Source: a virus (Duplodnaviria; Caudoviricetes). Taken from it: a stretch of 35,401 bases of DNA. Under the pieces are notes generated by a model that worked only from the letters and a program-made list of their open reading frames with translations, had not been told where the DNA came from and searched no databases. Shown piece after piece: positions 16,877 through 35,401 of the stretch. Positions within the stretch are counted from its first letter, which is position 1; the number at the start of each line of letters is the position of its first letter. The stretch is from positions 1-35,401 of the IMG/VR virus record IMGVR_UViG_3300012665_000299. The stretch is one strand, 5' to 3'. A program made the translations under genes and the position numbers.

Positions 16877-18457
16877 ATGGAAACGAAACCATATAACATC
16901 CAGTCCCCTGAGCAGATTGCCAAGGACTACGGCGGTAACAAGCAGAAGATTGCTGAAGCCATGCAGATGGGTGTCGTTGACCCCACAGCTGGCACATTAG
17001 CGGGTATGTTTATCGACCGCATGCGGTCGGCTGCGCAAGCAGAACAAGCTCCTCAGCAGACGGTAGCCCAGCAAGTATTCGCACCTCCTGCGCCTCCTGC
17101 ACCCATGGGTGGGATTGGCGCTCCTTCCCCGATGCCAGCACCGGGTGCCCCGGCTGGTCTTGGTGCTACACCAGAAGCTGCACAGATGCCTGCGCCTGAA
17201 ATGCCTATGCCAGAAGCTGCGCCTGAAATGCCGATGGAAGAAGCACCTATGGGTATGGCTGAGGGTGGCCTTACTGCGCTCCCTCTACCTGACACTATGT
17301 TCGATGAACCCAACAACGGTGGGTATGCTGGCGGTGGTATTGTTGCGTTTGCTGGCGGCGGTCCTCTTACTGACGAAGAAGCATGGAACCGTATCAAACG
17401 TATCGAAGGTGGCCTCGGCCCCAAGGGCGAAATGCGTGTAAGCTCCGCAGGTGCTGTTGGTCCTTCGCAACTAATGCCCGCCACTGCACCAGAAGCAGCA
17501 CGGCTTGCAGGTCTCCCATGGGATGAGAAGCGTTACCGCACTGACCCAGCCTATAACGAGGCACTAGGAAAAGCTTACTATTTGTCCCGCGTCGCTGCAC
17601 GTAAGGGCGATTACAACAAAGCTGCGCTCGACTACCACTCAGGTATGGGTAACGTAGACAAGGGTAAGATCGGTCCAGCGGGCCGTGACTATGCGCGTAA
17701 GTTCAGCGGAGCAGAAGTACCAGAGCGCAACACTCGTACGGCTGAAGGCTTTACCTCTAACCTTGGCGACATCACCGATTATGTCGAACGTCGTTTTGGT
17801 AAGACCGCCGAAGAAAAAGCCAACGACGAAGCGCTAACCGCCCGAGCCAAGGAAATGGCCTCGCCTGAGTATGCAGCCAAGGAAGCTCAGGACTCTATAT
17901 GGAGAACGCTAGCGGCTGTCGGGTTTAAAACGGCAGCTTCCGATGCTCCTGATCTAGCTTCGGCCTTTTTCAAATCTGCGGAAGCGGAGTTTGGTAATTA
18001 CGTTGCTGATAAGAAAGAACGCAAACAGCTTAAGGATAAAGCGCTTAACCTTATGGTTGCCAACGGTGCTAAGAACCGCAAGGACGCTATGGAGCGGTTT
18101 GACATGGCCCTTAAAATCCAACAGCTACAACTTGGTGAGAAGCTATCCGGCGAGAAGTTGCAGCTTGAACGAGACTCGCTTGCACAGGACAAAGATATCA
18201 AAACGCGTCAGTTAGATATTGAGGACTATAAGGCTAAGCACCCGAATATGAGCGACTTGGAGAGCGGCGTTAACTACTTCCTCGAAGAAAATCCCAAACT
18301 TACGCCTACGCAAGCACTTGAAGCATACCTTAAACTTAAACAAACATATGCTCCGGCTGCGTCAACGACGGGTATGTCACCCGAAGAAGTTGCGGCGCTT
18401 GGTCGTAAGGGTGGCGGTGCGAACCCACAAGTGATAAACGTCGGTACTATGCAATAG
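16877..18457 (+). CDS. Putative ejection protein with lytic transglycosylase (SLT-like) domain
   Basis: RIEGG (candidate catalytic Glu), SSAGAVGPSQLMPATA, and NEALGKAYY...AALDYHSG correspond to SLT motifs; coiled-coil C-terminal half. Confidence 0.7.
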   Translation: METKPYNIQSPEQIAKDYGGNKQKIAEAMQMGVVDPTAGTLAGMFIDRMRSAAQAEQAPQQTVAQQVFAPPAPPAPMGGIGAPSPMPAPGAPAGLGATPEAAQMPAPEMPMPEAAPEMPMEEAPMGMAEGGLTALPLPDTMFDEPNNGGYAGGGIVAFAGGGPLTDEEAWNRIKRIEGGLGPKGEMRVSSAGAVGPSQLMPATAPEAARLAGLPWDEKRYRTDPAYNEALGKAYYLSRVAARKGDYNKAALDYHSGMGNVDKGKIGPAGRDYARKFSGAEVPERNTRTAEGFTSNLGDITDYVERRFGKTAEEKANDEALTARAKEMASPEYAAKEAQDSIWRTLAAVGFKTAASDAPDLASAFFKSAEAEFGNYVADKKERKQLKDKALNLMVANGAKNRKDAMERFDMALKIQQLQLGEKLSGEKLQLERDSLAQDKDIKTRQLDIEDYKAKHPNMSDLESGVNYFLEENPKLTPTQALEAYLKLKQTYAPAASTTGMSPEEVAALGRKGGGANPQVINVGTMQ

Positions 18458-21400: not shown

Positions 21401-22738
21401 GCAATCAAGCAGCTACGTGGTTTGGACGGTATGGACCCTAAAGCCCGCGCAGGAAGCCTATTAACTGGTCTGAACACTTGGGTTGACGGGCTTGCCGACA
21501 TCATGGATATGGCTGCACGTTTTGCTACGTATCGTGCTGCTACTGACTTAGGTATAAACGGAACTGCTGCCGCTGACCTTGCGCTTGACTCGTCGCTGAA
21601 CCTTACCCGTCGCGGTGAGATGGCGCGTGGCATCGACCTTGTCATTCCGTTCTTCGGTGCCAGTGTCGAAGGTAGCCGTAAGACGCTACGTATTCTGTCG
21701 AACCCTAGGACTGCGGTGAAAATCATCGGTGGTCTTATCGCCTATGGTGCGATGGAGTCTGTGTGGAATGCCATGCAGAGTGGCGACAGCGACGATGACG
21801 GGCAGGAAGATTATCTTGACCTCGACCAAGGTGCTAGCCTGCGTATGTCTCGCGCTACGTTGTATTACGGTAGCGGCCCAGACGACTACATCAAGGTGCC
21901 AATCGGCCAGATGTTGGGCTACTTTAAGTTCTTCGGGAATAAGATTGGCGACGTAATGGCTGGTGCCAGTACAACAGGAGAGGCAACCAAGGGTCTCGTA
22001 CCCGGCTTCTTCAGCTTGATGTCTCCGCTGCGCATCCCAAGCGGTGACCTTTCCAGCTTTGCTGGTGCTATTACGCCACTGGTGGGTAAGCCGTTTGTCA
22101 ACGCCGCGTTCAACAAAAACTTCTTCGGGTCGCCTATCTATACCGAGTCGTTTCCCGGCGGTGCGCCTAAATCCGAGCTTGGCCGTCCTAGTACTGCCGA
22201 GCCGTGGAAGGAAGTCGCCAAGGCTGTCAACTACGCTACGGGTGGTTCGGAAGCTGTCAGCGGCACTGTGGATTTCCAGCCTGAAGTGTATCGCTACTTC
22301 ATTGAGAGCTACTTCGGTGGGCCTTACCAGTTGGCAAAGCAGATGGTGGGCCTCAAGGAAGCCGAGGGTATGTCGGACGTCCCGGGCATTAAAAGCTTTG
22401 TTGGTACTGGCGCGCAGTATGCACCACAGACCAAGTACTTCGAAAACACCGAAACCACACGCCAGATCATGAACCGCCTGAGCAAATTGACGCCAGAGCA
22501 GCAAATGGCACAAGGTGAGCGGTACTTCTTGGATACTGACCCCCGCGTCATAGAAGCGTACAAAGCTGTGGAAGCCAGCCTCGACCGTATCGGTAAAGAC
22601 CAGAAAGAAACCTTCAGGCTCAATCCGGACATGTCCGGTAAGGAAAAACAGGCGGTTCTCGACCATTACCGCGCTGAGAAAAACAAGTATTATAGCGCGT
22701 TTAACGCTGTCTATAACGCAGCTAAGAAGGGCGAATAA
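18467..22738 (+). CDS. Large internal virion protein (1423 aa), LPD38-like C-terminal region
   Basis: Last and largest late gene. C-terminal LNLTRRGE...PFFGASVEG...YIKVPIG...NKNFFGSPIY resembles large polyvalent protein domains of phage ejection proteins. Confidence 0.65.
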   Translation: MPIYQMTGKDGNTYQITGPAGLDAKAVQAEILKRAPQAGVPKKENAGFFGSLFEGAQTSGLADEAAAYAANQNDETRRALIKAGESKYRQVGFGEGENFEAFKQLAGGSLGQLAAPVAAGLVGSLATPVTGLAAASAVSGAQYTSQNLLRQAQEQERAIAEGKKPEDTSVGKAILAATGQTALDLAGGRVFSGIAKAFPFMRPLLGNAGGRAAQNAGEVLADAAENGTIKFAKGIAYGVGKGVAFEVPQEVAQQGLERWQAGMSLTDKEAQSEYGQAAIGALLLGGSVGGVFGAISSRNREAAPEEEVEPEAPEPNITPTTPVEREDVLARLTDVAGTDLSRGATAAIEALERRVSNDLSINTPESLAETRAYIVSQEDQIAAGQFPEDTADPLVRALGEAKLMVEEAAPAAPVEEAAPAAPVEEAAPAAQEGETDAGGVGAATAPIGDELGTSVPPSREPGPTGDTAGRVEQPDSETVGVDSVPPVSPSVSPDAQPDTLARTEEIPAPTQAGQVSELKPAPNWMVNLVDKFGMSGPLDAWAKSTLGYEVLPEQLGTESKLKMAASKQAGQERLLQRNYFNPIVETAAKLKVDIGDLGMYLWARGAADRNRIVAEQNVDFPEGGSGLTTAQAAETMQRFRDEGLLPKLNQLARKADAIVDFTLNEKVRAGLMTTEEATQLRETQPYYMPLKGFASNGDMLTADIGEDAHSPDRRAEAARALRTSVPTGSINEYRKAFGRGSMPFHPLFNLFQDAEQAVRRNITNEAIKPVLKTFQANPSAFEGIMNVYTDANPKKVMMGRDIPGGRFEPVDMKQEYYGNQSKYYLVKDDGVAHYIEFNDKGVGADLNRMFANMNPKDMEGAMQQLANVNNFLKGMLTYKNPLYLTFVAPFRDVSDAVATAMLRQNTKGDAAFGKNLAAKTFFYAINPTTWSTIGRFVFSKRAMNNETGRLLEAMIRDGGTPLQTRFLNTQEKADAANKAIKQLRGLDGMDPKARAGSLLTGLNTWVDGLADIMDMAARFATYRAATDLGINGTAAADLALDSSLNLTRRGEMARGIDLVIPFFGASVEGSRKTLRILSNPRTAVKIIGGLIAYGAMESVWNAMQSGDSDDDGQEDYLDLDQGASLRMSRATLYYGSGPDDYIKVPIGQMLGYFKFFGNKIGDVMAGASTTGEATKGLVPGFFSLMSPLRIPSGDLSSFAGAITPLVGKPFVNAAFNKNFFGSPIYTESFPGGAPKSELGRPSTAEPWKEVAKAVNYATGGSEAVSGTVDFQPEVYRYFIESYFGGPYQLAKQMVGLKEAEGMSDVPGIKSFVGTGAQYAPQTKYFENTETTRQIMNRLSKLTPEQQMAQGERYFLDTDPRVIEAYKAVEASLDRIGKDQKETFRLNPDMSGKEKQAVLDHYRAEKNKYYSAFNAVYNAAKKGE
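19678..19752 (+). repeat. Perfect 27-bp tandem repeat (x2.8) encoding VEEAAPAAP
   Basis: GGTGGAAGAAGCTGCGCCAGCAGCACC at 19678 and 19705; third copy partial at 19732. Confidence 0.95.
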
Positions 22739-22771
22739 AAAAGCCCCCAACCGCGAACGACTGGGGGCTTT
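22737..22771 (-). terminator. Intrinsic terminator of minus-strand transcription (possibly weakly bidirectional)
   Basis: Minus-strand RNA AAGCCCCCAGUCG-UUCG-CGGUUGGGGGCUUUUUU: continuous stem with two G:U pairs, UUCG loop, U6 tail. On the plus strand the G:U pairs become A/C mismatches and the U-tract is only 3 nt. Confidence 0.9.
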
Positions 22772-22805
22772 GAGTGATGTAATGGAGGAAGGAGCAAACT
22801 TCCGC
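22737..22805 (-). ncRNA. Candidate ~70-nt multi-target antisense small RNA
   Basis: GCGGAAGUUUGCUCCUUCCUCCAUUACAUCACUCAAAGCCCCCAGUCGUUCGCGGUUGGGGGCUUUUUU. Flanked by a promoter-like element and a terminator; 22789-22800 is complementary to five RBSs; 22771-22784 is complementary to the primase start region. Confidence 0.7.
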
Positions 22806-22809
22806 AGCC

Positions 22810-22845
22810 TGTATACTCACATTCGCCAGACTCGTAAACCCCTTA
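22810..22845 (-). promoter_or_regulatory. Putative promoter of the sRNA, TAAGGGGTTTA-N19-TATACA
   Basis: TTTACG (22838-22833), 17-nt spacer, TATACA (22815-22810); same motif as 13294-13329; overlaps the 3' end of CDS 22817..23011. Confidence 0.5.
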
Positions 22846-23011
22846 TCCCATCTTCTATGGTCATATATATCAACACCTTGACCTTCAGACGGTTGGTGAC
22901 CACTAGCAGTTGTGCTTTGGCACGGGCGTAGTCGAGGCACGGGAAGAAAACGGAGGTCCCCTTTTTGAACCTCCGCCAGTTTAATTCATAGGTTACGCCC
23001 TCAATCAACAT
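22817..23011 (-). CDS. Small basic protein (64 aa), probably nucleic-acid binding
   Basis: Start re-assigned to MLIEGV, overlapping the primase stop. The GTSVFFP...GLRVWR pattern is seen in small phage DNA-binding proteins. Confidence 0.65.
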   Translation of the reverse strand: MLIEGVTYELNWRRFKKGTSVFFPCLDYARAKAQLLVVTNRLKVKVLIYMTIEDGIRGLRVWRM

Positions 23012-25832
23012 CGACCTTTTCAGTCTCTTCGTATTGCGAAGTATCCACGAAATCGTCGTCATCAACCTTGAACCACAGGCAGTGGATTGGGTCACCGCTC
23101 ACCGCAGTTCCCTTGGACAAGCGGACACCACCCTTCTTGATGAGGCGTCCTTCCGTCTCCAGCTTGGCAATCGTGTCGTTGTAGTTAATCTGGAACTTCA
23201 CGCAGTAGTCCTTGAACGACTTAGCGATGATGTACATGCGCTTGGTATCTGGCTCAATCCGCACCAGCAACTCACCGCGTGGTTCGCGCTTTGGCAGCGC
23301 TTGCATATTGGTCCGCCTGTCAGCTTCACCATTAACCACAAGGATGTGCTGCATGTGGCGGTACAGATAGTCAGCAACAACCTGACGTACGCTGTCCACG
23401 GGAGCTATAATGTTCCTACGTAGGTCGTTAATCATCCCGCAGGAGTAGTGGTAGATACGGTCCATATCCCAATCCATGAGGCCGCAGTTGGTAGCCGTTA
23501 AACCACCTGCTATATTGCTGGCGACAGTCGCAGACCAGAAGCGCTCCTTAGGTTCAAGCTGGAGTTCGCGGTCAATCTTAAGCTGCAAAGCGTCAGCCAT
23601 GCGCTGGGTGCGCTCCATATTCTCAAGCACATAACGTATATAGATAGGACCGGCGTGGCCGTAGTTCTTGAATAAATCACGGTCGAACATCTGCTTGGCT
23701 TCCGTGGTGTTAAGCCCCGCGACCTTGTTGATTGGGTACTCAATCAGGCGCATCAGTTCGCCTTCTGGATTGTTCTTGATGACCGACAGCTTTTCCGCAA
23801 ACGAGGCATTTGATGTAGATACACTAATTGACTGCCACGTGGTGTTGTTCTCACGAAGCTCGTTGGTACCAGCCTGCATACGCTCCTTACCCTTACCGTT
23901 AGACAAGGCGTACAGGAACTCGGAATATTCTATCGGGGTCATGTTGGTCAGTTCGTCCATCGTCGGCGGGATATTGTTGAGAATACCCACCCACTGCAAA
24001 CGCCCATTGAGCGTGTCGTTCTGCTTCAAGCGCAGTTCCTTGGGGTGGCCGTAGACGCTATTCACCATATTAAGGATGGTGGTCTTACCAGTTCCGGAGT
24101 TAGCGTTGAACAGGTTGATGACCGCCCCTGTCTGGTCGAGGAACCGCAGCAGCGGTGACCCAAAGGCGCTGAGCGCCGCAAAGGCGTGGGGTTCCATTCC
24201 CGGCGTGTCATAAAGTGCCCAGATTTTCTTCCACTCTTCGAGCGACCCTACTGGCCCCATGAATTTAGCCAGTGGGCGTGTTGTCTTTGATGGCGGCGAA
24301 TGAGCCACACCATCGATATGGATTTCCTGACTGCCTATGATAAACTTGCTGCCGTTGTCGGCCCAGCCAAATTGTTGACGCATGATTTGCTCCTTGTCGC
24401 GGTATTGAATGTCTTTCATCATCAGCGAGATGAACTCCATCAGATGGGTAAATTTCTTCCCCATGCAAATGACACCTTTAGACGAGAGCGCTTTGCGAAG
24501 CTCTTCGGGGCTGGTGATTTTGAACAGGGGTATGTGGAACTCTTTGGTGTTGTTGTGCGGTAGATGTAGCCGGAACATCACGACGTTACCGTCGATGCTG
24601 TCGTCCATAATCTTGGTCGGGTACAAATCGAACTCGTAGACCAACGTAGGCTCTGCTTCTTCGGCATCCTTAGGTGGCTTCTTCCAGATACCGCCGCCTT
24701 CGCCACGGTAGAACGGGAAGGGGTACTTCGATATCACGTGGCTTTCGGTTACGCCGTTGATTGTTTCGACCACAACGTGGTCTTCTTCGGCTTCACGTGC
24801 TTTTTTGCCGAGGTCCTTAGGCCCCATGATAGTACCAAGATGCGGACAGCCCTCGCATAGCTCTGGGTTGACGCTCTTGAATTTAGCGCAGCTAGTCGCC
24901 TTTCGGATGGTAGCTACCTTCTTGTCTATGGTATCCGGCTCATAGTCTGGGTGACCCTTCGACATCATGTGGACTGCTGTGTCAGCATCCTCACACATAG
25001 CCGCCACGGACAGCGCATAGAACCACTCATAGTAGCCAATGGTAGCTTGGTTCTTATAGGCATGTAGAAGCTGGTTACACCCATCCCCCTTAGCCGTACG
25101 CTGCATGATTTGCTTGAAGTTGAAGCCGATACCATTGTGCCGTGCCAGTTCCCGTGGCGATGGCTGGTAGTCATCGTCAAAGATTGTCGGCTTCGTCTTG
25201 ACCCCAAAGATGGAGCGCATTTCCTCAAAGGAGATAGGCTTACCGACATGGATAAACTCGACCGGACGCGGCTCTTCCTGCTTATAGTTAAAGGTATTGG
25301 GCACACGCAAGATACGCGCCGCTTCAAACACCTTGTCATCCACGTAGAAGTTCTGGGTGCGGCACACTTCCTTAATGCGCTCTGCCACAGGCTCCCAGTC
25401 TCGACGGGATACTTCTTCCTCAAGAGGCCAGTAGGCATGGATGCCCCCTCCTGAGTTTACTAGCGTAGGGGGAGGAAGACCCACTGATCCGCAGAAAGTG
25501 CGAAGCGCCCCTAACCCAGTTTGTTGGTCTATGTACCCGTCCGGCCTACCAGTTTCCGCATTGATTTCGGCTTTGCTAGGGCCGCAGTCGATGTCTAACC
25601 AGAATGCCTTTAGGGCTTTTACGTTTTCCTTCGTCCGGTTTGCGCCGGTCTCATATTTAGCTACGCCAAAGAACACATTACGTTGCTGCTGCATAAACGT
25701 CTGGATGCACTCATCTGCTTCCTCGCGTGTGGCTACAAGCTCCTGTCTGACGTCCTTTGGCCCTTTGATACCTACGATTGCAAACCAGCCTGAGGCTGGC
25801 TGCACGAGGTCTAGGAGGTCTGGTTGCTGCAT
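23001..25832 (-). CDS. Primase-helicase (RepB/AEP-type primase + Cys cluster + DUF927-type helicase)
   Basis: WLDIDC, VNSGGGIHAYW and RILRVP primase motifs; SC...CEGCPH; QFGW; Walker A NSGTGKTT; Walker B MDE. Start is ATG 25832 or GTG 25844. Confidence 0.85.
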   Translation of the reverse strand: MQQPDLLDLVQPASGWFAIVGIKGPKDVRQELVATREEADECIQTFMQQQRNVFFGVAKYETGANRTKENVKALKAFWLDIDCGPSKAEINAETGRPDGYIDQQTGLGALRTFCGSVGLPPPTLVNSGGGIHAYWPLEEEVSRRDWEPVAERIKEVCRTQNFYVDDKVFEAARILRVPNTFNYKQEEPRPVEFIHVGKPISFEEMRSIFGVKTKPTIFDDDYQPSPRELARHNGIGFNFKQIMQRTAKGDGCNQLLHAYKNQATIGYYEWFYALSVAAMCEDADTAVHMMSKGHPDYEPDTIDKKVATIRKATSCAKFKSVNPELCEGCPHLGTIMGPKDLGKKAREAEEDHVVVETINGVTESHVISKYPFPFYRGEGGGIWKKPPKDAEEAEPTLVYEFDLYPTKIMDDSIDGNVVMFRLHLPHNNTKEFHIPLFKITSPEELRKALSSKGVICMGKKFTHLMEFISLMMKDIQYRDKEQIMRQQFGWADNGSKFIIGSQEIHIDGVAHSPPSKTTRPLAKFMGPVGSLEEWKKIWALYDTPGMEPHAFAALSAFGSPLLRFLDQTGAVINLFNANSGTGKTTILNMVNSVYGHPKELRLKQNDTLNGRLQWVGILNNIPPTMDELTNMTPIEYSEFLYALSNGKGKERMQAGTNELRENNTTWQSISVSTSNASFAEKLSVIKNNPEGELMRLIEYPINKVAGLNTTEAKQMFDRDLFKNYGHAGPIYIRYVLENMERTQRMADALQLKIDRELQLEPKERFWSATVASNIAGGLTATNCGLMDWDMDRIYHYSCGMINDLRRNIIAPVDSVRQVVADYLYRHMQHILVVNGEADRRTNMQALPKREPRGELLVRIEPDTKRMYIIAKSFKDYCVKFQINYNDTIAKLETEGRLIKKGGVRLSKGTAVSGDPIHCLWFKVDDDDFVDTSQYEETEKVDVD

Positions 25833-25843
25833 TACATCACTCA
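25830..25843 (-). promoter_or_regulatory. Primase translation-initiation region; 14-nt perfect target of the candidate sRNA
   Basis: mRNA UGAGUGAUGUAAUG is identical to + strand 22771-22784, so it is complementary to the minus-strand RNA from that locus. Confidence 0.7.
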
Positions 25844-25889
25844 CCGTCGCGGGGTATACCCGCCATATTATTAGTTGTGCCGACGATTA

Positions 25890-26126
25890 TTATGTACGGT
25901 CGTGAATTTTATCCATCCACACCCTAATCTCACTTTCGTGAGAAGGGCGGGGCGACGTAGTCCCACTGAACCAACCGTAAATTGTCTGACGGGTAACCCT
26001 CAAGGTGGATGCTATCTCTGCGACAGGGATGTCGCGTTCGAGGCATAAACGTCCGAGTTGGACACCAAGAAGATTACCGTCAGCGCTTTTTATCGCTTCG
26101 GCTATACGGATGCTATAGCCTTGCAT
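25890..26126 (-). CDS. XRE/Cro-like helix-turn-helix protein
   Basis: IPVAEIASTLRVTRQTIYGWFSG is an HTH pattern. Confidence 0.8.
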   Translation of the reverse strand: MQGYSIRIAEAIKSADGNLLGVQLGRLCLERDIPVAEIASTLRVTRQTIYGWFSGTTSPRPSHESEIRVWMDKIHDRT

Positions 26127-26129
26127 AAA

Positions 26130-27071
26130 TCAATCCTCGTCATCGTTATCAAGCCACTCACCCAGCACGGATGCCAGTTCGGGCTTCACTTCAGTCACAG
26201 TAGCCTTAGGCTTACTGGCGCGCTTTGCAGGCGCAGCTTGCACGACTTCCTCTTCGTCCTCGTCGTCATCACCAAACGGATTGACAGGAGGCTGAGCGGG
26301 CGGAGGAGCGATAGCTGCTGCTTTAGTAGGAGCAGAAAGGGCAGGAGCACCGCTAACGGCAGCAACCGACAACATGGTGTACTTCTCAGTCGCTGGGTCA
26401 TCCTGCGCTGCGTCAACCAAATCGGACTCAATCGGGGTCAAGTGACGGATAGCCTTGAAGCCTACCTTGGCGGTATCTGCTTCGGCATCATAGATGATGC
26501 GCGTGACAACCGTATCCAGACCTTCGCCATTGGCGAGGAGGAACTTCTTGTAGCCCTCGAAGCCATAGATGCTACCGTCGTTGGCACTAAACAGCGAAGC
26601 GCCGGGAACTGCGATTTGGTATACGTCACCTGATGGGTCACCAGCAACAAGAGCGGCGAGGCGGCGTTCGTAACGACAAGCCTTACCCTTACCGTTGGAG
26701 CCGGAACCCTTCACGTTCTTAGGGCAGACAGCGCAGGAAGCGGATTGCTTACCCTTGGCAGTTGCTTCTGGGGTAATGCCATCGTTCGACCAGCAGTCAG
26801 GTAGCGTTGCTTTTGCGTCCTTGTCGTACGCAGCCGCGTAGAACTTACGCGATGGTTCCATGAGCCAGTCAACGACGATGACGTCGAGTTGGTTGCTGAC
26901 AGACTTACCAATCTGCTCACCGTTAACTACGCGCTTGAAGACGCGGCCATTGCTAAGCTGGATACGGCGCATGCTGCTACCGCTGCCATTGGACATACGG
27001 TCCATACGACGCGACTCACGGCGTACGGTGGGGACATCGCTCTGCTCTTCGAAGATTGTAATGTTGCTCAT
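26130..27071 (-). CDS. Putative ssDNA-binding/annealing protein with Zn-binding Cys and acidic tail
   Basis: CWSNDG, CAVC and KAC motifs; Pro/Ala linker; acidic C-terminus WLDNDDED; replication context. Start taken as MSNIT. Confidence 0.6.
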   Translation of the reverse strand: MSNITIFEEQSDVPTVRRESRRMDRMSNGSGSSMRRIQLSNGRVFKRVVNGEQIGKSVSNQLDVIVVDWLMEPSRKFYAAAYDKDAKATLPDCWSNDGITPEATAKGKQSASCAVCPKNVKGSGSNGKGKACRYERRLAALVAGDPSGDVYQIAVPGASLFSANDGSIYGFEGYKKFLLANGEGLDTVVTRIIYDAEADTAKVGFKAIRHLTPIESDLVDAAQDDPATEKYTMLSVAAVSGAPALSAPTKAAAIAPPPAQPPVNPFGDDDEDEEEVVQAAPAKRASKPKATVTEVKPELASVLGEWLDNDDED

Positions 27072-27079
27072 AGGTATTC

Positions 27080-27484
27080 TCACTTTTCTGTGGGTTTGCG
27101 GACTTGGATTACGTACTTATTATCGGTCTGTAGGCCGATAGGGAGGATGTCCGGATTTTCCTCCATGAACTGCTTCATGTTACCGTTATGAATGCGCTTC
27201 TCAAGTATAAAAGCCGCATCATGTTCAGCGATGAACTGGTACATACGTTCCCAGTCCGTGGTCCAGTAGCGGGTCTGAACACGGCGGGACACGGTGCCCG
27301 ATGGTGTCTTGACGCTATCAAGATTTTGCTCGTTACAGAACTTCAGAAGCTCGGATGATACAAGCTCCAGCTTCTCTTTGAGACCAGACACACGGGCTTC
27401 GTGTGCCTCTTCCTCTGTCGTTATGGCAGCGCGTAGTTTACGATACGCAGCCACAAGGGTTTCAATAGGTATTGCTTCTTCCAT
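27080..27484 (-). CDS. Conserved phage replication-module protein (N-terminal coiled coil; Gam-like architecture possible)
   Basis: Coiled coil followed by SVKTPSGTV...DWERMYQFI...LEKRI; strong RBS AAGGAG. Confidence 0.55.
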   Translation of the reverse strand: MEEAIPIETLVAAYRKLRAAITTEEEAHEARVSGLKEKLELVSSELLKFCNEQNLDSVKTPSGTVSRRVQTRYWTTDWERMYQFIAEHDAAFILEKRIHNGNMKQFMEENPDILPIGLQTDNKYVIQVRKPTEK

Positions 27485-27496
27485 AGTTTGCTCCTT
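27485..27496 (-). promoter_or_regulatory. Conserved RBS motif AAGGAGCAAACT (sRNA target)
   Basis: Abuts ATG 27484; 12/12 complementary to sRNA seed 1. Confidence 0.8.
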
Positions 27497-27518
27497 AGGT
27501 AGTCGTTGCTACAAACCC

Positions 27519-27547
27519 CTCCTATTCCTTACGTTATACAATGTCAA
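27519..27547 (-). promoter_or_regulatory. Putative sigma70-type promoter TTGACA-17-TAGGAG
   Basis: Perfect -35 at 27547-27542, 17-nt spacer, -10-like TAGGAG at 27524-27519; upstream of the SSB/primase sub-operon. Confidence 0.5.
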
Positions 27548-29078
27548 GTTCTTGATTGTATAGGTCGATAATTTTTAGGTGGTTTGCAATGTTGCCTTGC
27601 AGCATAGAGTACAGCCGCTCTTCCACTGGGCTTCCTTTGATATGCACAATGGTCATGGCGTTCTTCTGTCCTGCACGGTCGATACGGGCGTTTGCCTGTA
27701 GGTAGGTTTCCACGCTCGTCGTAGGCGCGTACCAGATAATGGTATCCGCTGCCGTAAGAGTAAGTCCATGCGATGCAGCCTTAGGCTGGATAAGCAGGAC
27801 ACGGGGGTTCGGGTCTGTCTGGAAGCGGTTCACAATCTCTGTGCGCTTGTTGACCGGAACCTTACCATTGATGACGTCGCAGGTTATCTTCTCCTTGTCC
27901 ATCAAGGCACGTAGTAGCTCAATGGTATGGGTGAACGGCACGAAGACCAGCACTTTGTTGCTGGCTTCCTCAATGACTTCCAACACCACCTTAAGGCGGT
28001 TGGATACGTCGAACTCTAGGACTTCTCCAGTATCCGTGTAGACTGCACCCCCGCTAATCTGAAGCAGCTTGTTGAGCTTGGTCGCTGCGTTTACCGCGCT
28101 GACCTCTTCACCTTGGGCTTCGAACAACATCTGGTTTTTAAGCTGGGCGTAGAACTTGCGCTGCTGCGGGGTGAGCGGCGCTTCGCGTTCGATGTGGGTT
28201 ACAGACGGTAGGTCGAGACAGTCCTTCTTCTCGAACCGGATAGCCGGTTGTAAAACTTTATGGACGATGGCGTCCGCACTGGGCCTCGGTGCCCATTTGA
28301 ACTGGGTCACCTTCATCATCACGCTGTCGCGGAACGCGCCGTAATACTTCGGACATCCCGGCCCTCCTGCCATACGGGCCAGCCCGTAAGCATCGATAGG
28401 GCTTTGTGCTGCTGGCGTACCAGTAAGCATCCACATCCGGGGATTAGTCTCACGCACAATCCGGTCTAGGATTTTCCAGCGGTTGGTCATGGGGTTCTTG
28501 TACGCGTTAGCTTCGTCAATCACGATAAGGTCGAAGCCACCCTTGGCGATGGCGTCCTTGACTACGGCCACACCATCGAAATTTATGATGACGAAGTCGG
28601 AACCTGCGTTGATGATCTTCTCACGCTGCTTAGCCGCCCCATGTGCCACGCTGCACGAACGGTGCATGGCGAACTTAAACAGGTCCTGCTGCCATGCGGA
28701 CTTCATGATGGATAGCGGACAAAGGACAAGGACGCGCTTCACGATGCCACGCTTCATAAGATAGTCTGCTGCCCAGATAACACTGGCGGTCTTGCCTGTG
28801 CCCTGCTCGTTGAAGCAGAAGGCGCGCCTACGCAGCGATAGGAATGACGCTGTGGTTTTCTGGTGGTCGAACGGCTTGAACTTACCCGTCCATTCGTAGG
28901 ACTTTAGGATAGGTGAGGGGACATTATCAAAGCCAAGGTCTGTTAGTATCTCAGCTTCGGTGTGTCCCCATTTGACAAGGACGCCTTCCTTAACGGCGGC
29001 GCTCTTATGTATATGGTCCGTGATGGCAGACGGGTCCTGAGCGTTGATGAGCAACGCCTTATTCTCGATGATTTCCAC
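27534..29078 (-). CDS. SNF2-family (SF2) helicase
   Basis: EQGTGKT, IVIDEAN, LTGTP, GLTLTAA and QANARIDRAGQ motifs; GTG start. Confidence 0.92.
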   Translation of the reverse strand: MEIIENKALLINAQDPSAITDHIHKSAAVKEGVLVKWGHTEAEILTDLGFDNVPSPILKSYEWTGKFKPFDHQKTTASFLSLRRRAFCFNEQGTGKTASVIWAADYLMKRGIVKRVLVLCPLSIMKSAWQQDLFKFAMHRSCSVAHGAAKQREKIINAGSDFVIINFDGVAVVKDAIAKGGFDLIVIDEANAYKNPMTNRWKILDRIVRETNPRMWMLTGTPAAQSPIDAYGLARMAGGPGCPKYYGAFRDSVMMKVTQFKWAPRPSADAIVHKVLQPAIRFEKKDCLDLPSVTHIEREAPLTPQQRKFYAQLKNQMLFEAQGEEVSAVNAATKLNKLLQISGGAVYTDTGEVLEFDVSNRLKVVLEVIEEASNKVLVFVPFTHTIELLRALMDKEKITCDVINGKVPVNKRTEIVNRFQTDPNPRVLLIQPKAASHGLTLTAADTIIWYAPTTSVETYLQANARIDRAGQKNAMTIVHIKGSPVEERLYSMLQGNIANHLKIIDLYNQELDIV

Positions 29079-29090
29079 AGTTTGCTCCTT
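29079..29090 (-). promoter_or_regulatory. Conserved RBS motif AAGGAGCAAACT (sRNA target)
   Basis: Abuts GTG 29078; 12/12 complementary to seed 1. Confidence 0.8.
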
Positions 29091-29098
29091 GCGGGGGG

Positions 29099-29383
29099 TT
29101 ACTTCTTTTTCTTGCGTTCCCGTGTGCTGGTTTCCGACACTAGGTTGCGCTTGCTGTCGCGCTTGAATGAGCGGTTGGCCGATGCGCTCTCGACGCGCAG
29201 TCCGGTCTTGTTATTACCGCCCTTATCGAATGCCTTTACGTGAGCAACGTCTTTACCGTCGCCCTTGCTGACTTTGCCAGCCTTCATCATCTTGGCACGG
29301 GCAGCGTTACGCGCAGCGCGGTTCTTCTTCTGCTCCGCTGTACCTTGGTACTTCGCGTACTCTGCCTTGTAATCTCTGGCCAT
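29099..29383 (-). CDS. Small basic HNH-like protein
   Basis: Start re-assigned to MARDYKAEY (TGATG overlap, GGAGG RBS). GDGKDVAH...GG...LRV...ANR is an HNH-like pattern. Confidence 0.65.
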   Translation of the reverse strand: MARDYKAEYAKYQGTAEQKKNRAARNAARAKMMKAGKVSKGDGKDVAHVKAFDKGGNNKTGLRVESASANRSFKRDSKRNLVSETSTRERKKKK

Positions 29384-30057
29384 CACCGCCTCCGTGGGGG
29401 TTTGTAATGTTCGCAACTTACCACAGGACACCACCCGCATAAAGGGCTTGTCTTGGCATTCCATACACCGTTCCCAATGGCGGCATCCAACTGGTCTAAC
29501 TGGTCATCGAACACGGAGAAGTATTGGTCCAGCTTCTCCCGTACGTGTACCTTCTTAGGGAACTCGTTGCTAACCACGAAGGCCAGCGCCGACTTAATCT
29601 TCTGCACCTCTGGGAAGTGTACGAAGATTGCCCCCGCCATAAGGTCAAGCTGCTTCATGTCCGCGTACTTGGCGCTCTTACCTGTCTTGTAGTCAATCAT
29701 GAAAGCCGTGTGGCCATCCACGATTAGCAAATCGACGATGCCGCGCCACCACACATCCTTAGCGAAGAAGGTGGTAGGCTCGTAGCCAGTATCCGTCTTG
29801 GCGACACCTAGCCGTAACTCGGTGTGCTTCGTGCCCTGCTTCGCAGCCAGTGGTTCCACGATGGGTCGCATGTAGGCAAACTTCTCAGGGATAGGTGTGC
29901 CATCCTTGATGAACAACTCGGCAGCTTCATGGACTGCGGTCCCATAGTCAGCAGCTTCCCCCGGAATATCCTTGACGTCCTTCGCCACCTTAAGGTGGTA
30001 ATACTTCTTCGGACATTGGTCGAAGGTCTTGATGCTGCTATAGGACCACGCTGTCAT
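29383..30057 (-). CDS. Cas4-like PD-(D/E)XK exonuclease
   Basis: WSYSS...CP, GTAVH, GIVDLL, IDYKTG, QL and CGWC...C (four-Cys Fe-S staple). Start taken as MTAWSYS. Confidence 0.88.
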   Translation of the reverse strand: MTAWSYSSIKTFDQCPKKYYHLKVAKDVKDIPGEAADYGTAVHEAAELFIKDGTPIPEKFAYMRPIVEPLAAKQGTKHTELRLGVAKTDTGYEPTTFFAKDVWWRGIVDLLIVDGHTAFMIDYKTGKSAKYADMKQLDLMAGAIFVHFPEVQKIKSALAFVVSNEFPKKVHVREKLDQYFSVFDDQLDQLDAAIGNGVWNAKTSPLCGWCPVVSCEHYKPPRRR

Positions 30058-30058
30058 G

Positions 30059-30637
30059 TTATCTGATTTTCCCTTGGAGACGGTCGGCCACCAACGTAGC
30101 ATATCCGGCAATGTCTAGCCAGCTATCTATATAGTGTGAGTCGCCGGTGATGATACGCGCAATCTTACTCGCTATCATATCAAGTGCTTCCTGATGGTCT
30201 GCTTGTAGGGTTACATTTTGTTCGTCTAGGGCGCTACGGATGACTTCTTTCATATCCTGCGCAAAAAGCGCTACGTTAATGAAGCTACCGTAAGTGGAAG
30301 CACGGGCATTAAGGATTGCGTCCACCTCTTGGGCAGACTTGGCCCCCTCGACTACGACATACTCACCGGCTTCGGCCTTAATAGCTTCCTCGCGGCGCTT
30401 CTGCCTACCCTGCGACAGGGAGAAGGCAAACTCCGGGGTTATGTTAGGGTATACGTTCGTGTCTACGCTAAGTATGGTTGTCTTAGGTTCCACCTCAGCT
30501 TCTACTCCCGCTTCCATCAGTTTCTTCAGCTTCCATGCGTAGTTGTAGCTTGCATCCATACGCTGGGTAACTTCCCTAGGCGAGTAGCCCTGCTTTAGTA
30601 GTTTCATGATTGCCTTTGCTTTAGCTGTCTTATTCAT
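30059..30637 (-). CDS. HTH + DUF6378-like domain protein
   Basis: N-terminal GYSPREVTQRMDASYNYAW HTH-like segment; C-terminal R..TYG.F...KIARI...DSWLDIAGYA signature. Confidence 0.7.
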   Translation of the reverse strand: MNKTAKAKAIMKLLKQGYSPREVTQRMDASYNYAWKLKKLMEAGVEAEVEPKTTILSVDTNVYPNITPEFAFSLSQGRQKRREEAIKAEAGEYVVVEGAKSAQEVDAILNARASTYGSFINVALFAQDMKEVIRSALDEQNVTLQADHQEALDMIASKIARIITGDSHYIDSWLDIAGYATLVADRLQGKIR

Positions 30638-30640
30638 TTC

Positions 30641-30651
30641 GTTTGCTCCTT
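30641..30651 (-). promoter_or_regulatory. Conserved RBS motif AAGGAGCAAAC (sRNA target)
   Basis: 3 nt before ATG 30637; 11 contiguous complementary bases; overlaps the upstream stop codon. Confidence 0.8.
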
Positions 30652-31405
30652 ACTTTAGGTTCCCGCCCGATTTCAAAATGTCCCCGTTGTAGACGTAGGT
30701 CCCAACATGGTCCAACTTCACGAAGGGGTGGGCGTATATCTTCCCCCCGTGCTTGCGAAACAGTTCGCAAAAGTGGTAGTCCTCCGATAGCAGTGCGCCA
30801 GTATGGTCAATGCTGGTAGCGAAAAACTCGTGCGTCAGTGGCTTGTCGTACTCACCATCTGGTTTGATGAATGAGGATGTCCGGTAGGTCGGCACATGTG
30901 GCGCAAGGTGGTCGAACACCCCCCGCCTGATAAGCATAAAGCCTGTACCACCATGCCGCACTTCTATTGTACCGCGCTCGTCAGTCTCGACATGTGCTTC
31001 ATCCACCATGTTGAACACGAACGCACCTGCATGGTCTTCAAGGTCTTCTTTGCCAGCGGCGGCTGCGCGTTTGACGCTATCCCAGTTCACTTCTTTCTTA
31101 GGGTAGATACCGCACACGATGTCATCGTCCACGGCCAACAGGTGAGCGATAGCCTGCCCGTCGAAACCGATGTCGGCGTCGATGAACATTAGGTAGTCAC
31201 AGTCTGTTGCTAAGAAAGTACGAGCAAGCTCGTTACGTGCTCGCGTAATTAAACTCTCGTTCGTCATGTGTGCCCAGCGTACCTCGACACCTAGTTCACG
31301 CATCGTAGCCATAGTGTTGAGCAAACCCATCACATACATGCCCGTGCACATGCCCCCGTACATGGGGGTGGCAATCATAATCTTAGGACGTTTCTCTTTG
31401 GTCAT
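30650..31405 (-). CDS. GT-A fold glycosyltransferase-like protein
   Basis: IMIATP, ITRARN, LMFIDAD (DxD), GTGFMLI, SEDYHFC and LDHVG motifs. Confidence 0.8.
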   Translation of the reverse strand: MTKEKRPKIMIATPMYGGMCTGMYVMGLLNTMATMRELGVEVRWAHMTNESLITRARNELARTFLATDCDYLMFIDADIGFDGQAIAHLLAVDDDIVCGIYPKKEVNWDSVKRAAAAGKEDLEDHAGAFVFNMVDEAHVETDERGTIEVRHGGTGFMLIRRGVFDHLAPHVPTYRTSSFIKPDGEYDKPLTHEFFATSIDHTGALLSEDYHFCELFRKHGGKIYAHPFVKLDHVGTYVYNGDILKSGGNLK

Positions 31406-31556
31406 TGCTCTGTTCTTTCTTTAATCTTCTGTATCGACACTCCACGGCAGCAACCGTTAGGCCCATTTGCTCCGCCATATACGCTGGCCTTAGGCCATGC
31501 TGATAATACTCCAGTAACTGTGCGTCTTTCTCAGGTGTCCATACTCGTTTAGGCAT
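31383..31556 (-). CDS. GcrA/Myb-like HTH mini-protein (57 aa), absent from the ORF track
   Basis: MPKRVWTPEKDAQLLEYYQHGLRPAYMAEQMGLTVAAVECRYRRLKKEQSNDQRETS; TAATG overlap with the upstream gene; AAGGA RBS. Confidence 0.7.
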   Translation of the reverse strand: MPKRVWTPEKDAQLLEYYQHGLRPAYMAEQMGLTVAAVECRYRRLKKEQSNDQRETS

Positions 31557-31765
31557 TATTTTTCCTTGGTGAACAGTTCGACTTCGCTACGTCTGGAAGT
31601 CCCTTGGTTTGTCCGGCGTGTACCAAGTTTAAGAAGTTCCCGTGACAGGCGGGTATTTTCATCCCGTAACTGGTGGATACGGATTGTGTTTACGATGGTA
31701 GCGGCAACGGCAGCGAGGGAACCGCCAATAAAAAACCCAACGGTAAAACTTAATGGGTCGAACAT
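31556..31765 (-). CDS. Small membrane-anchored coiled-coil protein
   Basis: N-terminal hydrophobic helix followed by LRDENTRLSRELLKL; AAAGGA RBS. Confidence 0.65.
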   Translation of the reverse strand: MFDPLSFTVGFFIGGSLAAVAATIVNTIRIHQLRDENTRLSRELLKLGTRRTNQGTSRRSEVELFTKEK

Positions 31766-31769
31766 AATC

Positions 31770-32372
31770 TTATCCTTTCTTACGTACTACTAATTGATAT
31801 CCAACGTGGACAATCTCTGCTGTCTCGCCAAAGATGTTGGTGAAAGCGTCGATTGCAATCTTAGGGCGGTGCAGCGCATCGCGGGGGTTGCCCCACATAT
31901 AATCATCAAACACCATCAAACCTTCAAGCTTGAGCAACGGCCAAGCCATACACGCATCGGTTAGCACATCCTTAGCTACATGGCTTCCGTCGATGTAGAT
32001 GAAGTCGAAATATGCGTGGTCTTCGGGGGTTTCCACCAACCAGTGCGCAAGGTGCTGGGTAGATGTACCTTTAAGTTTGTGTATGTAGACTACGTTTTCT
32101 TCCTCTGCGATGTTGGTATTGTGGTCAAACCGCTTCTCCACCTCGCTCATGTTCTCTTCGCCGTGTTCTTCGCCGCCCATCCATGTGTCGATACAGTAAA
32201 TATCCGCAGGGGTTTCGCCAGAAATCATATTCTCAGCAATCCAGACGGTGCTACGCCCTTCGAACGAACCGATTTCAAGGAAGTTCTGCCGCGCAGGTAG
32301 CATAGGGATAAGCTGCGTCCAGACTTCCGGTGCCCAGTTGAACCAGTCTTTTGTGTATTGGTACTCGCTCAT
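31770..32372 (-). CDS. Class I SAM-dependent methyltransferase (Methyltransf_24-like)
   Basis: LEIGSFEGRS, CIDTW, FDFIYIDGSH and GLMVFDDY motifs. Confidence 0.88.
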   Translation of the reverse strand: MSEYQYTKDWFNWAPEVWTQLIPMLPARQNFLEIGSFEGRSTVWIAENMISGETPADIYCIDTWMGGEEHGEENMSEVEKRFDHNTNIAEEENVVYIHKLKGTSTQHLAHWLVETPEDHAYFDFIYIDGSHVAKDVLTDACMAWPLLKLEGLMVFDDYMWGNPRDALHRPKIAIDAFTNIFGETAEIVHVGYQLVVRKKG

Positions 32373-32785
32373 TTTAATACCTTCCTTATTGAATTGAGTA
32401 CGCCAGATGAAACATCTAGCTTCGTACTTGGTGACTTCGTACCGACACCGACCATCTTATCGAGGTCATAGTCGTAAGCTTGTTTCGTAAGCGTGAGTGA
32501 CTTGGACAGGTTACGCTCATACTCATACTCTTCCCGTTCCGTGCGGCGGCGTTCGGGGCCGTTAAGTAGTTCATCCAGTACCTCTCCGTGGAGTTCGTCC
32601 ATTAAGATACCCCGCAGCTTCACGGTTATCGCAGCCTTGTCAGCCTCGCTTCCGTGGTCCTGTATTATGTCTATGTGGTGGGACCAGCGTTGGTGGAATA
32701 TCCCTTCCCCAATCCTAAACTCTTCGGGATGGCTCTCCATCCGTGCGACCAGTAGTTTGACTACATCATGTGGCTCACCCGCCAT
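32369..32785 (-). CDS. Hypothetical protein
   Basis: Start re-assigned to MAGEPH behind AAGGAGCAAGCT; overlaps both neighbouring genes. Confidence 0.7.
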   Translation of the reverse strand: MAGEPHDVVKLLVARMESHPEEFRIGEGIFHQRWSHHIDIIQDHGSEADKAAITVKLRGILMDELHGEVLDELLNGPERRRTEREEYEYERNLSKSLTLTKQAYDYDLDKMVGVGTKSPSTKLDVSSGVLNSIRKVLK

Positions 32786-34592
32786 AGCTTGCTCCTTTCT
32801 TGCTTTCACAGTTTAGCGGCAGTGCCGTTGCCCACTTCGGGCGTATACGCATACAGGACTCAACGAACCGCTGTGCCTCCTCTGCTTTTTCAGTAGGGGC
32901 GATTGCTCCTACTGCGTCATGGACAGTCATCACCACGCGCAGGCGTCGTGCAACCATCAACATCTGTTCCCCGATAATGATACGGGCTAGGGCTTGACAG
33001 ATATTCTCGACAGCCTTCCCGCCATAGATGCGGGTTGGTATAACTGCGCGGCCCTTCTTCTGGTCGTAGACCATCTCGGACTTACCATCGCGCATTATGT
33101 AACGCAGGTTCGGGTATTTAAGGCTCAGCCCATTAGGCAGCTTGATACCGTCCGCTCCGCACACCGTCAGCACACCGTCCAGACCTATCGGTGCTGTCTG
33201 GTTGTTGGCTATAGCCTCCAGTGCCTCCCCAGTCTGACGCCATAGAAGTGGGATCATGGGATAGGTCTCTCTGTATACGCTAATAATACGTTTACATTCA
33301 TCCGCGTGCATATCAAAACCAAAGGTCTTTAGCTGCGCTTGGAACTTAACCGCACCCATCCCATAACCACAGCCAAGGATGGTGGTCTTACCCACGAACC
33401 GCTGGTCATCCGTCACCTCATCGACAGGCACACCGTAGATGGAGCTTGCCATAATCTTATAGACGTCCTCACCTTGGTCAAACGCAGCGACAAGGTCATC
33501 CTGTCCAGCCAGCCAAGCCAAGGTCCGCGCTTCAATCTGGCTGCTATCGCAGTCGATAAAGGTATAACCCTCTGGTGCCAGCATGGCCTTCTTCAATGGC
33601 GACTTGCGCGGTAGGTTCTGAAGATTAACCTTGTCGTCACCACCCCAGCGTCCGGTATGCGCAGCATAATAGCGTAAGGGGACGGGTAATGTCCCTCGGT
33701 CTGCAATCTTAATGAACCGCTCGGTGCGTGTCTCTTCCAACGTAGACTTAACGCCTAGCCGCGCAGCCACAATGGCTTGCACCACGGCGTTCTTATGCTC
33801 CAGTAATGCCTTAAACTCTTCGTCGGTCTTGGCAAAGGCATAGGTCTCTTTGCCTGTAGCGGGACTAATCTTCATCGGCGGCTCGACGCCTAAGCTGCGT
33901 AGCGTCTCGGCCAACTGCGGGTTGGACATCAGGTTCTCTTTAGTGATGAGCGACTTACCCAGTAGGTCATTCTTCATGCGCTTCACCCTGCCCAAGTGTT
34001 CCTCTAGGGCTTGCTTGTTTATGGTCAGCACTGGCTCGGTGAACATACGGATAGTCAGGTCAATCAACCGGAACTCAACCGCCGGAAAGCCCACAGCAAT
34101 ACGCTGGAACAGGTCATAGGTCAGGTCCGCATCATTGCAGCAGTATGTGCCGTAACGAGCCATCTCCTCCGGCGTGAAGTCCACGCGCATCTTACCCAGT
34201 GCGTTGATAACCTCATCGCCCTTCTTACCCAGCCCGTAGCGTTCGGCTGCTTTGGCTAGGCTGTTACCCGCATCAGGCCCATCAATGGCGCGAAGCATGG
34301 AGAGCGTGTCCACAATCCGCTTGGGTCGGATGTCGAAGTGCCAGTTAAGGATAGCCATATCGAACACAGCGTTGTGCGCCACAGCGATAGCGTTGTCCCA
34401 GTCAAACTGGTCAAGCCACACCTTGGTCTTCGCCTTAGTCCCGCTGAACCATTGAGCTTCCCCGGAGTCAACCTTTACTGATACGCCGATAACCTCAAAG
34501 ATTTCATCGCGGATATACTCCTCCGTTGTCACCTTGGACAGCGAGTAGCTTCGGTCGTAGTAGGTCTCGAAGTCGATTGTGATTACGTGCAT
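32775..34592 (-). CDS. polA: Family A DNA polymerase with 3'-5' exonuclease domain
   Basis: Exo motifs DFETY, AHNAVFD, YCCND; polymerase motif A DSSQIEAR, motif B RFVGKTTILGCGYG, motif C VHD. Confidence 0.95.
   Translation of the reverse strand: MHVITIDFETYYDRSYSLSKVTTEEYIRDEIFEVIGVSVKVDSGEAQWFSGTKAKTKVWLDQFDWDNAIAVAHNAVFDMAILNWHFDIRPKRIVDTLSMLRAIDGPDAGNSLAKAAERYGLGKKGDEVINALGKMRVDFTPEEMARYGTYCCNDADLTYDLFQRIAVGFPAVEFRLIDLTIRMFTEPVLTINKQALEEHLGRVKRMKNDLLGKSLITKENLMSNPQLAETLRSLGVEPPMKISPATGKETYAFAKTDEEFKALLEHKNAVVQAIVAARLGVKSTLEETRTERFIKIADRGTLPVPLRYYAAHTGRWGGDDKVNLQNLPRKSPLKKAMLAPEGYTFIDCDSSQIEARTLAWLAGQDDLVAAFDQGEDVYKIMASSIYGVPVDEVTDDQRFVGKTTILGCGYGMGAVKFQAQLKTFGFDMHADECKRIISVYRETYPMIPLLWRQTGEALEAIANNQTAPIGLDGVLTVCGADGIKLPNGLSLKYPNLRYIMRDGKSEMVYDQKKGRAVIPTRIYGGKAVENICQALARIIIGEQMLMVARRLRVVMTVHDAVGAIAPTEKAEEAQRFVESCMRIRPKWATALPLNCESKKGASYGG
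32786..32797 (-). promoter_or_regulatory. RBS motif variant AAGGAGCAAGCT (sRNA target, one G:U)
   Basis: Embedded in the last codons of the polymerase gene; abuts ATG 32785. Confidence 0.7.
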
Positions 34593-35288: not shown

Positions 35289-35400
35289 TGATTTGCTCCT
35301 TGGCTTCCATGAAGGCTTCGATAAACGCAGGGTATGTCACGGCACTCCCGTCCTTTACCATCATCTTGGGTTCGGGCGGTAAACCCTCATCCTCTGGGGC
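35281..35400 (-). CDS. 3' end of a hypothetical protein (truncated by window edge)
   Basis: Open frame ...APEDEGLPPEPKMMVKDGSAVTYPAFIEAFMEAKEQING*, overlapping the VRR-NUC start. Confidence 0.55.
   Translation of the reverse strand, partial: APEDEGLPPEPKMMVKDGSAVTYPAFIEAFMEAKEQING
35291..35301 (-). promoter_or_regulatory. RBS motif variant AAGGAGCAAAT (sRNA target, one G:U)
   Basis: Embedded in the upstream CDS; 2 nt before ATG 35288. Confidence 0.7.
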
Positions 35401-35401
35401 C

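Follow-up and report, generated by a model that had tools for sequence, protein, structure and literature searches.

The window analysed here is a 35.4 kb piece (35,401 nucleotides) of an uncultured tailed phage (Caudoviricetes virus record IMGVR_UViG_3300012665_000299, labelled G000). In the gap between its two convergent gene arms, the minus strand carries a short element that is probably a trans-acting small RNA (sRNA) of ~67 nt blocking translation of the early/replication arm of the phage, as judged from sequence. Read along the minus strand, the element consists of a promoter-like site, a 5 bp hairpin (hairpin 1), a linker and an intrinsic terminator (Table 1). The loop of hairpin 1 complements a tag, AAGGAGCAA, at six starts in the replication arm: those of five genes and one internal start of the primase–helicase. 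The plus strand encodes structural and lysis proteins up to 22738. The minus-strand arm, which ends at 22817, encodes a VRR-NUC nuclease, DNA polymerase A, a methyltransferase, a PD-(D/E)XK exonuclease, an SNF2 helicase, proteins of 134 and 313 residues, a helix–turn–helix (HTH) protein, a 943-residue primase–helicase and a basic 64-residue protein. The labels 'early' and 'late' are assigned throughout from gene content.

Complementarity to start sites in the window

All six minus-strand copies of the 9-mer AAGGAGCAA in the window lie either 2–3 or 0 bases 5′ of a start codon, and on the plus strand the 9-mer occurs at the element only. A first-pass annotation, made from the sequence alone, had proposed a multi-target antisense RNA here, with one seed matching the ribosome-binding sites (RBSs) of five minus-strand genes and another forming a 14 nt complement of the primase–helicase start. 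The sequence that it gave maps to the minus strand at 22805–22737. Both pairings are present, seed 2 covering the Shine–Dalgarno (SD) sequence and ATG of the primase–helicase (25843–25830); seed 1 has a sixth site in addition to the five genes, at the in-frame ATG 24383 inside the primase–helicase gene, and the six sites originally counted are in fact seven. When 36 start regions were ranked by hybridization plus opening energy, calculated in a way that approximates IntaRNA, ranks 1–6 and 8 went to the seven sites and rank 7 to a late gene (4559), in good agreement with the top ranking that had been anticipated. The element complements 7 of 35 start regions over at least 9 nt; among all other 69 nt windows clear of starts, on either strand, the best complements 3.

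RNAfold returns exactly the two hairpins that had been described (−26.5 kcal/mol, z = −2.6), and the terminator, also correctly recognized, ranks first in strength among 16 terminator-like sites in 22300–35401. The predicted +1, at ~22803, lies two bases inside the 5′ end given previously. The annotation had recognized no described family, and no Rfam family matched at the gathering score in the window or in eight related loci; the nine sub-threshold matches (best E = 0.14) were all far under it.

The internal ATG 24383 corresponds to Met484 of the primase–helicase, a residue shared by all 108 primases compared and positioned 3′ of purine-rich SD-like codons. The seed-1 tag is present at this position in only ~10 loci, all of the clade of the window. 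From the sequence, a second, helicase-side product of 460 residues is possible, the alternative being structural conservation of Met484; the T7 gp4A/4B pair is a comparable two-product primase–helicase. A GC-rich hairpin in the primase leader (25849–25863), directly 5′ of the seed-2 site and with a similar counterpart in most relatives, may be an attenuator, a processing site or a translation control element.

Conservation of the element and co-variation of seed 1 with its tag

Relatives were gathered with the 64-residue protein as anchor, a procedure blind to the RNA. The gene was present in 172 of 176 stored sequences, with at least 110 nt downstream in 160, and a terminator was detected in 149. 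Two of the 11 loci scored as terminator-less (L086 and L087) are detector misses; the other nine truly lack the element, and in these the late gene abuts directly. Several hundred further loci (583 confirmed) lie outside this set. The 149 loci represent 112 distinct elements, 98 with hairpin 1 and 14 without it, in phages whose primases are 38–94% identical to that of the window. The gap downstream of the primase–helicase is therefore conserved in relatives, as had been foreseen. A DNA pattern search returned 64 matches; the 62 that have sufficient flanking sequence are all located after the 64-residue gene, with the primase upstream. The hairpin-1 loop retains GCUC while the stem varies on both sides, in six main types: GGAAG/CTTCC (61), GAGAG/CTCTC (11), GCAAG/CTTGC (7), GACAG/CTGTC (5), GAAAG/CTTTC (3) and GTAAG/CTTAC (3). 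Stem changes are compensatory, with two-sided change in 14 cells (0 of 500 shuffles).

An own-seed complement of at least 8 nt was found at the start of the 134-residue gene in 94 of 97 orthologues, of the 192-residue gene in 26 of 30 and of the SNF2 helicase gene in 32 of 62. Corresponding numbers are 15/98 for the 313-residue gene, 1/97 for the HTH gene, 0/72 for the exonuclease and 0/98 for the 64-residue gene. The product of the 134-residue gene has weak Mu Gam-like/DUF7307 matches. Across the tags of this gene, the four bases after GGAG agree with the seed in 351 of 376 comparisons (94 rows, three rows without GGAG having been dropped), against 286 ± 5 after permutation. At the second position, which is the most variable, 90 of 94 rows agree (A:A 64, T:T 17, G:G 9, mismatched 4). 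Loop UUAGCUC occurs with tag AGGAGCTAA, AAUCGCUC with GGAGCGAT/C and UUGCUC with AGGAGCAAC, and UUUUGCUC is paired with AGGAGCAAAA in four of five cases. On a primase tree built with FastTree (92 rows), parsimony requires at least two concerted changes at position 2 and at least five at position 4. For 50 representatives with primase identity below 85%, the own-target duplex has an energy of −17.0 kcal/mol, compared with −14.0 ± 0.3 kcal/mol for permuted pairs (0 of 10,000 permutations). Co-variation of seed 1 with the tag of each genome, a check that the annotation had suggested, was thus found, with few independent events.

The tag is largely confined to the early strand. At start-like sites, which are mechanical calls, the own 8-mer occurs 169 times on the early strand (844 kb) and not once on the late strand (638 kb), compared with 486 early and 91 late occurrences of plain AGGAG; 189 tags are in sense orientation and two antisense. 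Five larger records contain 7–8 forward copies of the 9-mer, nearly all in the early arm, and 1–2 reverse copies including the element (control, 0). The forward copies head genes along the whole early arm, including an ATPase gene and several genes of unknown function, and since the tag in near-complete relatives (58–64 kb) is also present at the starts of early genes that are not part of the replication module, the predicted regulon is the early arm and not the replication genes alone. The earlier description of the targets as replication and recombination genes holds for the nuclease, helicase and primase starts, which have complementary sites; it does not hold for the DNA polymerase, exonuclease and gene in the single-stranded DNA-binding protein (SSB) position, which mostly have no direct target site.

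Two further variants of the 5′ part were noted. About 20 elements (L095, L108, L114, L121, L132, L135, L155 and their kin) have an extra 25–35 nt 5′ hairpin with C/U-rich loops. In L143, L147 and L168 the SD sequence of the 134-residue gene is AGAGGT and the element has the complement TACCTCT upstream of a variant hairpin, possibly a shifted seed.

Seed 2

The linker changes fast. It complements the own primase start over 8–17 nt in 23 of 98 loci (shuffled linkers: mean 1.1, maximum 6), with distinct linker/start pairs in different lineages: CAUUACAUCACUC with GAGTGATGTAATG in the clade of the window, UGCAUUGCAUCACUC with GAGTGATGCAATGCA in L030 and L053, UGCAUCACAUC with GATGTGATGCA in L049, GGCAUCACUC with GAGTGATGCC in L056 and GGCACACU with AGTGTGCC in L021. 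Paired variants are also found in L102 and L138. A 12 nt complement lies 26 nt into the primase gene in L102/L111, and in L061 the linker lengthens the pairing at the 134-residue gene. The co-variation expected between seed 2 and the primase start is therefore seen in some lineages and fails in most, and seed 2 is, on this sequence comparison, an accessory, lineage-specific module. The terminator loop gave a weak signal as a third seed (14 versus 3 matches of at least 9 nt), with a site ~118 nt upstream of the primase in three loci; we make no claim for it. Complements of 9–10 nt to hairpin 1 or the linker also lie inside the primase coding sequence in L006, L016 and L022 (primase +85) and in L013 and L014 (+295), a lineage without seed 2 at the primase start; one paired change distinguishes L013 from L014, and these matches may be chance.

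Promoter-like site, strand and source of the predicted RNA

The promoter-like element noted in the first-pass annotation is supported by its conservation in relatives. It was not listed by a consensus scanner because the −10 box lacks its last T. The Leu codon within the −35 box is TTA or TTG in 107 of 108 Leu codons, against a background of 24% in the primase and 28% in the rest of the small gene. The Arg codon that follows varies freely at its third base, and the −35 TT is lost in seven of the nine element-less loci. The best −10 box lies 6–7 nt before hairpin 1 in 65 of 98 elements, a spacing at which the RNA would start at the foot of the hairpin; in 19 elements, whose 5′ part is longer, the distance is 30–40 nt. 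Terminator stems on the element strand contain G–U in 66 cases and A–C in 3, and the opposite (late) strand has no conserved U-tract (at least five A in 2 of 112). A promoter and an intrinsic terminator with a U tail, the usual marks of an sRNA gene, are hence both indicated by conservation, together with complementarity to start regions at other loci, co-change of seed and target and a location at the 3′ end of the operon that is targeted, as for OppZ and CarZ. The annotation had left open whether the RNA is independently transcribed or released from the 3′ untranslated region; selection on the −35 codon and loss of the −35 box with the element favour an own promoter over 3′ processing.

Proposed mode of action

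The predicted RNA would be transcribed from its own host-type promoter. Its loop, UUUGCUC, would nucleate on GAGCAAA, upon which the weak 5 bp stem would open, and 9–12 bp of pairing would cover the SD sequence and spacer, so that initiation would likely be blocked. The linker would serve as a fast-changing second seed, which in the lineage of the window would cover the primase–helicase start. The median gap to the upstream stop codon is 1 nt for the exonuclease, 9 nt for the 313-residue gene and 2 nt for the HTH gene, which are untagged (mostly within ~10 nt), and near 55 nt for the 134-residue gene and the primase. Because tagged starts are thus mostly distant from the upstream stop, closely following genes (exonuclease, HNH, SSB-position and HTH) would fall by translational coupling, and whole blocks of coupled genes could be controlled from a small number of tagged entry points. 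The most likely purpose, which is also the weakest step of the scheme, is that the RNA would accumulate during infection, shut down early translation, free ribosomes for late genes and cap the level of replication proteins.

Neighbouring genes and other features

The 64-residue protein, encoded by the last gene of the minus-strand arm, belongs to a phage-only family of several hundred members. Its structure was modelled confidently as β–α–β–β (predicted local distance difference test, pLDDT, 89), with no fold match at E = 0.001 in the PDB and viral structure libraries, no Pfam match and no match among 50,697 phage records; weak matches include R3H-containing and ribosomal S8 proteins. A 57-residue protein (31383–31556, minus strand) has weak GcrA/Myb-like HTH matches under the curated cut-offs, and −10-like boxes without the last T are found near the arm heads of two relatives; we take these two features together as a hint of an alphaproteobacterial host. 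The primases closest to that of the window in cultured phages (Pseudomonas phage Rollin and the Rhizobium RHph_TM phages) are 25–28% identical, and these phages have no such element at the corresponding junction. L177, a complete relative, encodes a GroES-like co-chaperonin (17967–18407, minus strand) among its head genes. In the window, two late genes share the start context GCAGGAGTAAC(A/T)TAATG, at 3610–3627 and 10310–10327 (plus strand), perhaps a second tag or a duplication.

Table 1. Coordinates of the predicted sRNA element, its complementary sites and the adjoining gene in the 35,401-nucleotide window
Feature	Position	Strand	Remarks
Predicted ~67 nt small RNA	22737..22803	minus	+1 placed from the −10 spacing
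−35 box TTTACG	22833..22838	minus	In Gly-Leu-Arg codons of the 64-residue gene
−10 box TATACA	22810..22815	minus	17 nt spacer from −35; 6 nt upstream of hairpin 1
Hairpin 1, GGAAG-UUUGCUC-CUUCC	22787..22803	minus	RNAfold; compensatory stem types in relatives
Seed 1, AGUUUGCUCCUU (loop and part of both arms)	22789..22800	minus	Complementarity
Seed 2, CAUUACAUCACUCA (single-stranded linker)	22771..22784	minus	RNAfold, complementarity
Intrinsic terminator, stem and U6 tail	22737..22771	minus	Overlaps stop codon of the convergent 1423-residue late gene
Seed-1 site, 10 nt	35292..35301	minus	Before VRR-NUC nuclease gene, ATG 35288
Seed-1 site, 9 nt	32789..32797	minus	Before 138-residue gene, ATG 32785
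Seed-1 site, 11 nt	30641..30651	minus	Before 192-residue DUF6378 gene, ATG 30637
Seed-1 site, 12 nt	29079..29090	minus	Before SNF2 helicase gene, GTG 29078
Seed-1 site, 12 nt	27485..27496	minus	Before 134-residue gene, ATG 27484; most conserved target
Seed-1 site, 10 nt	24386..24395	minus	Before in-frame internal primase–helicase ATG 24383 (predicted 460-residue product)
Seed-2 site, 14 nt	25830..25843	minus	Spans SD sequence and ATG 25832 of primase–helicase
64-residue basic protein gene	22817..23011	minus	Last gene of the arm; contains the −35 box

Weighing of the alternatives

Several observations weigh against an sRNA acting as proposed. The loop/tag co-changes are at the level of clades and few are independent, kinship having been only partly removed, and seed-1 mismatches show no excess of G–U over A–C (37 versus 34). 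L122, L124 and L084 combine a CAAA seed with a CTAA tag, and L134, L162, L164 and L167 carry an A–C mismatch at the edge. The tag is retained in L063, which lacks hairpin 1, and a tag-like start is retained in L157 and L163, which lack the element. For seed 2, the complement is shorter than 8 nt in 75 of 98 loci and shorter than 9 nt in 26 of 27 held-out loci from the pattern search (at least 9 nt in one), and L005 and L067 have a seed-2-like linker with no matching primase start. The −10 box shares TA letters with the stop codon and was chosen as the best of five spacers, late strands show no enrichment of TTTACG-type sites that would point to a late-class promoter, and the folding energy of the whole element shows no strand preference (58 of 112).

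Other explanations would account for some of these data. The same pairing could involve an RNA that is the processed 3′ end of a long early mRNA or that folds back in cis. The element does close the operon that it complements, with a common terminator, and the available text on OppZ and CarZ in Vibrio provides a precedent (PMC7398697). This origin is unlikely given the −35 codon bias, the fixed spacing between the −10 box and hairpin 1 and the loss of the −35 box with the element, all of which point to a promoter, and given that tagged starts in whole genomes can be as far as ~20 kb upstream; a primary transcript and a processed 3′ end can, as far as the sequence goes, also act as sources together. 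It is quite unlikely that the RNA pairs as proposed but serves superinfection immunity or a carrier state, or tunes or activates translation. Immunity is the setting in which the known phage trans-antisense RNAs c4 (PMC12197685; PMC5320573) and P4 CI (PMC4825925) act according to the accessible parts of these sources, seed variants differ among clades in the manner of immunity groups and a promoter of host type could be active as soon as the phage enters the cell. Such groups are poorly matched, however, by a set of relatives most of which have one seed (51 of 98 loops are identical). Tyrosine integrase (PF00589) was found in none of five near-complete relatives, a search that did not extend to serine recombinases and partition genes, and there is no prophage copy in any named isolate genome, only in contigs of metagenome-assembled genomes. 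A lytic shut-off or feedback brake is favoured over immunity on these last two grounds, and covering of the SD sequence and spacer is established to block initiation normally.

A protein might instead bind or cleave the tag in the manner of RegA or RegB, the reversed copy being a decoy made by late read-through or a DNA operator. T4 RegB cuts the GGAG of early mRNAs and needs a conserved 11 nt context, in the accessible text of PMC1702504; such a site would also co-vary genome-wide, late read-through is possible since the late strand has no conserved U-tract at the element, and the adjoining 64-residue basic protein is always linked. We nevertheless hold this to be very unlikely: the promoter and terminator face the minus strand, which the G–U bias also favours, the tag is nearly absent on the antisense strand, the 64-residue gene persists in loci without element and tag, and a protein site leaves unexplained a second, unrelated complement of 10–17 nt that co-varies with one start. 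Least probable is a plain terminator, with the complementarity a relic of an inverted duplication or a chance anti-SD sequence. C-rich anti-SD-like runs are common near terminators and nine relatives lack the element, but the retained loop and compensated stem across such divergent primases, together with seed–target co-change and the shuffled, strand and window-wide controls, largely refute it.

A trans-acting sRNA against early starts thus being the preferred reading, a wider one may be entertained, tentatively and as something short of probable on the sequence comparison: in a widespread, ~60 kb, apparently lytic clade, one sRNA timer would drive the early-to-late switch through a private early-RBS tag that is kept out of late genes, a swappable second seed recruiting extra targets such as the primase–helicase. 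If true, this switch would be an RNA counterpart of T4 RegB, and the developmental timing of phages would gain a further level of control, exerted by an RNA that acts in trans on an entire temporal class of genes of the same phage. The proposed pairing would account for one extended RBS repeated in many uncultured phages. Seed and tag would co-evolve, with the natural variants constituting ready compensatory pairs for the seven predicted sites, and a possible use in synthetic biology is as a compact, orthogonal set of repressors and RBSs.

Comparison with known systems

No published description of the element was found in the literature searched, which most subscription papers lay beyond. In the readable supplement tables of Fremin et al. 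(2023) on viral structured RNAs (PMC10690425), the seed words and six contig numbers were not found; the catalogue may nevertheless include the motif with no function assigned to it. Known phage sRNAs act on one phage gene, in immunity or on host RNAs, according to the accessible text of PMC12197685. As predicted for the element, c4 of P1/P7 is a phage trans RNA that acts on a phage RBS through loops, with two pairing segments (PMC12197685; PMC5320573). It has three stem–loops, is released by RNase P from a longer precursor and regulates an antirepressor for immunity, whereas the element is arranged as hairpin, linker and terminator and complements a tag repeated at 7–10 early starts. Membership of the Rfam C4 family was rejected, with no match at the gathering score and no C4 row up to E = 10; the element has two hairpins, one being the terminator, and it is predicted to target genes for nuclease, helicase and primase and early genes of unknown function instead of an icd/ant antirepressor operon.

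The CI RNA of satellite phage P4 restrains the replication genes of its own phage by pairing within the same transcription unit, as the element is predicted to do; it arises from the leader by processing and acts at two sites through premature termination (PMC4825925), while the element lies at the far 3′ end of the operon and complements starts. The sRNAs PreS (lambda), VpdS (VP882), Sar, OOP and aQ are phage-encoded, as predicted for the element, but the main targets of PreS and VpdS are host RNAs or Hfq, and Sar, OOP and aQ each act on one phage gene (PMC12197685). A cis-encoded antisense RNA of the Sar/OOP type is ruled out here, the targets lying 1.6–12.5 kb away on the same strand. Sar, OOP and aQ overlap their targets in cis. 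OppZ and CarZ, for their part, each have a few sites in their own operon. They resemble what is predicted for the element as RNAs from the 3′ end of an operon that pair with starts of their own transcript and inhibit translation; they are bacterial and processed by RNase E (PMC7398697), whereas the element belongs to a phage in which many starts are tagged, and its promoter-like site is conserved. A functional analogue is T4 RegB, which shuts down early mRNAs via GGAG and a neighbouring conserved sequence, as set out in the available text of PMC1702504. RegB is a protein nuclease that works with S1, whereas the specificity of the element would come from RNA pairing.

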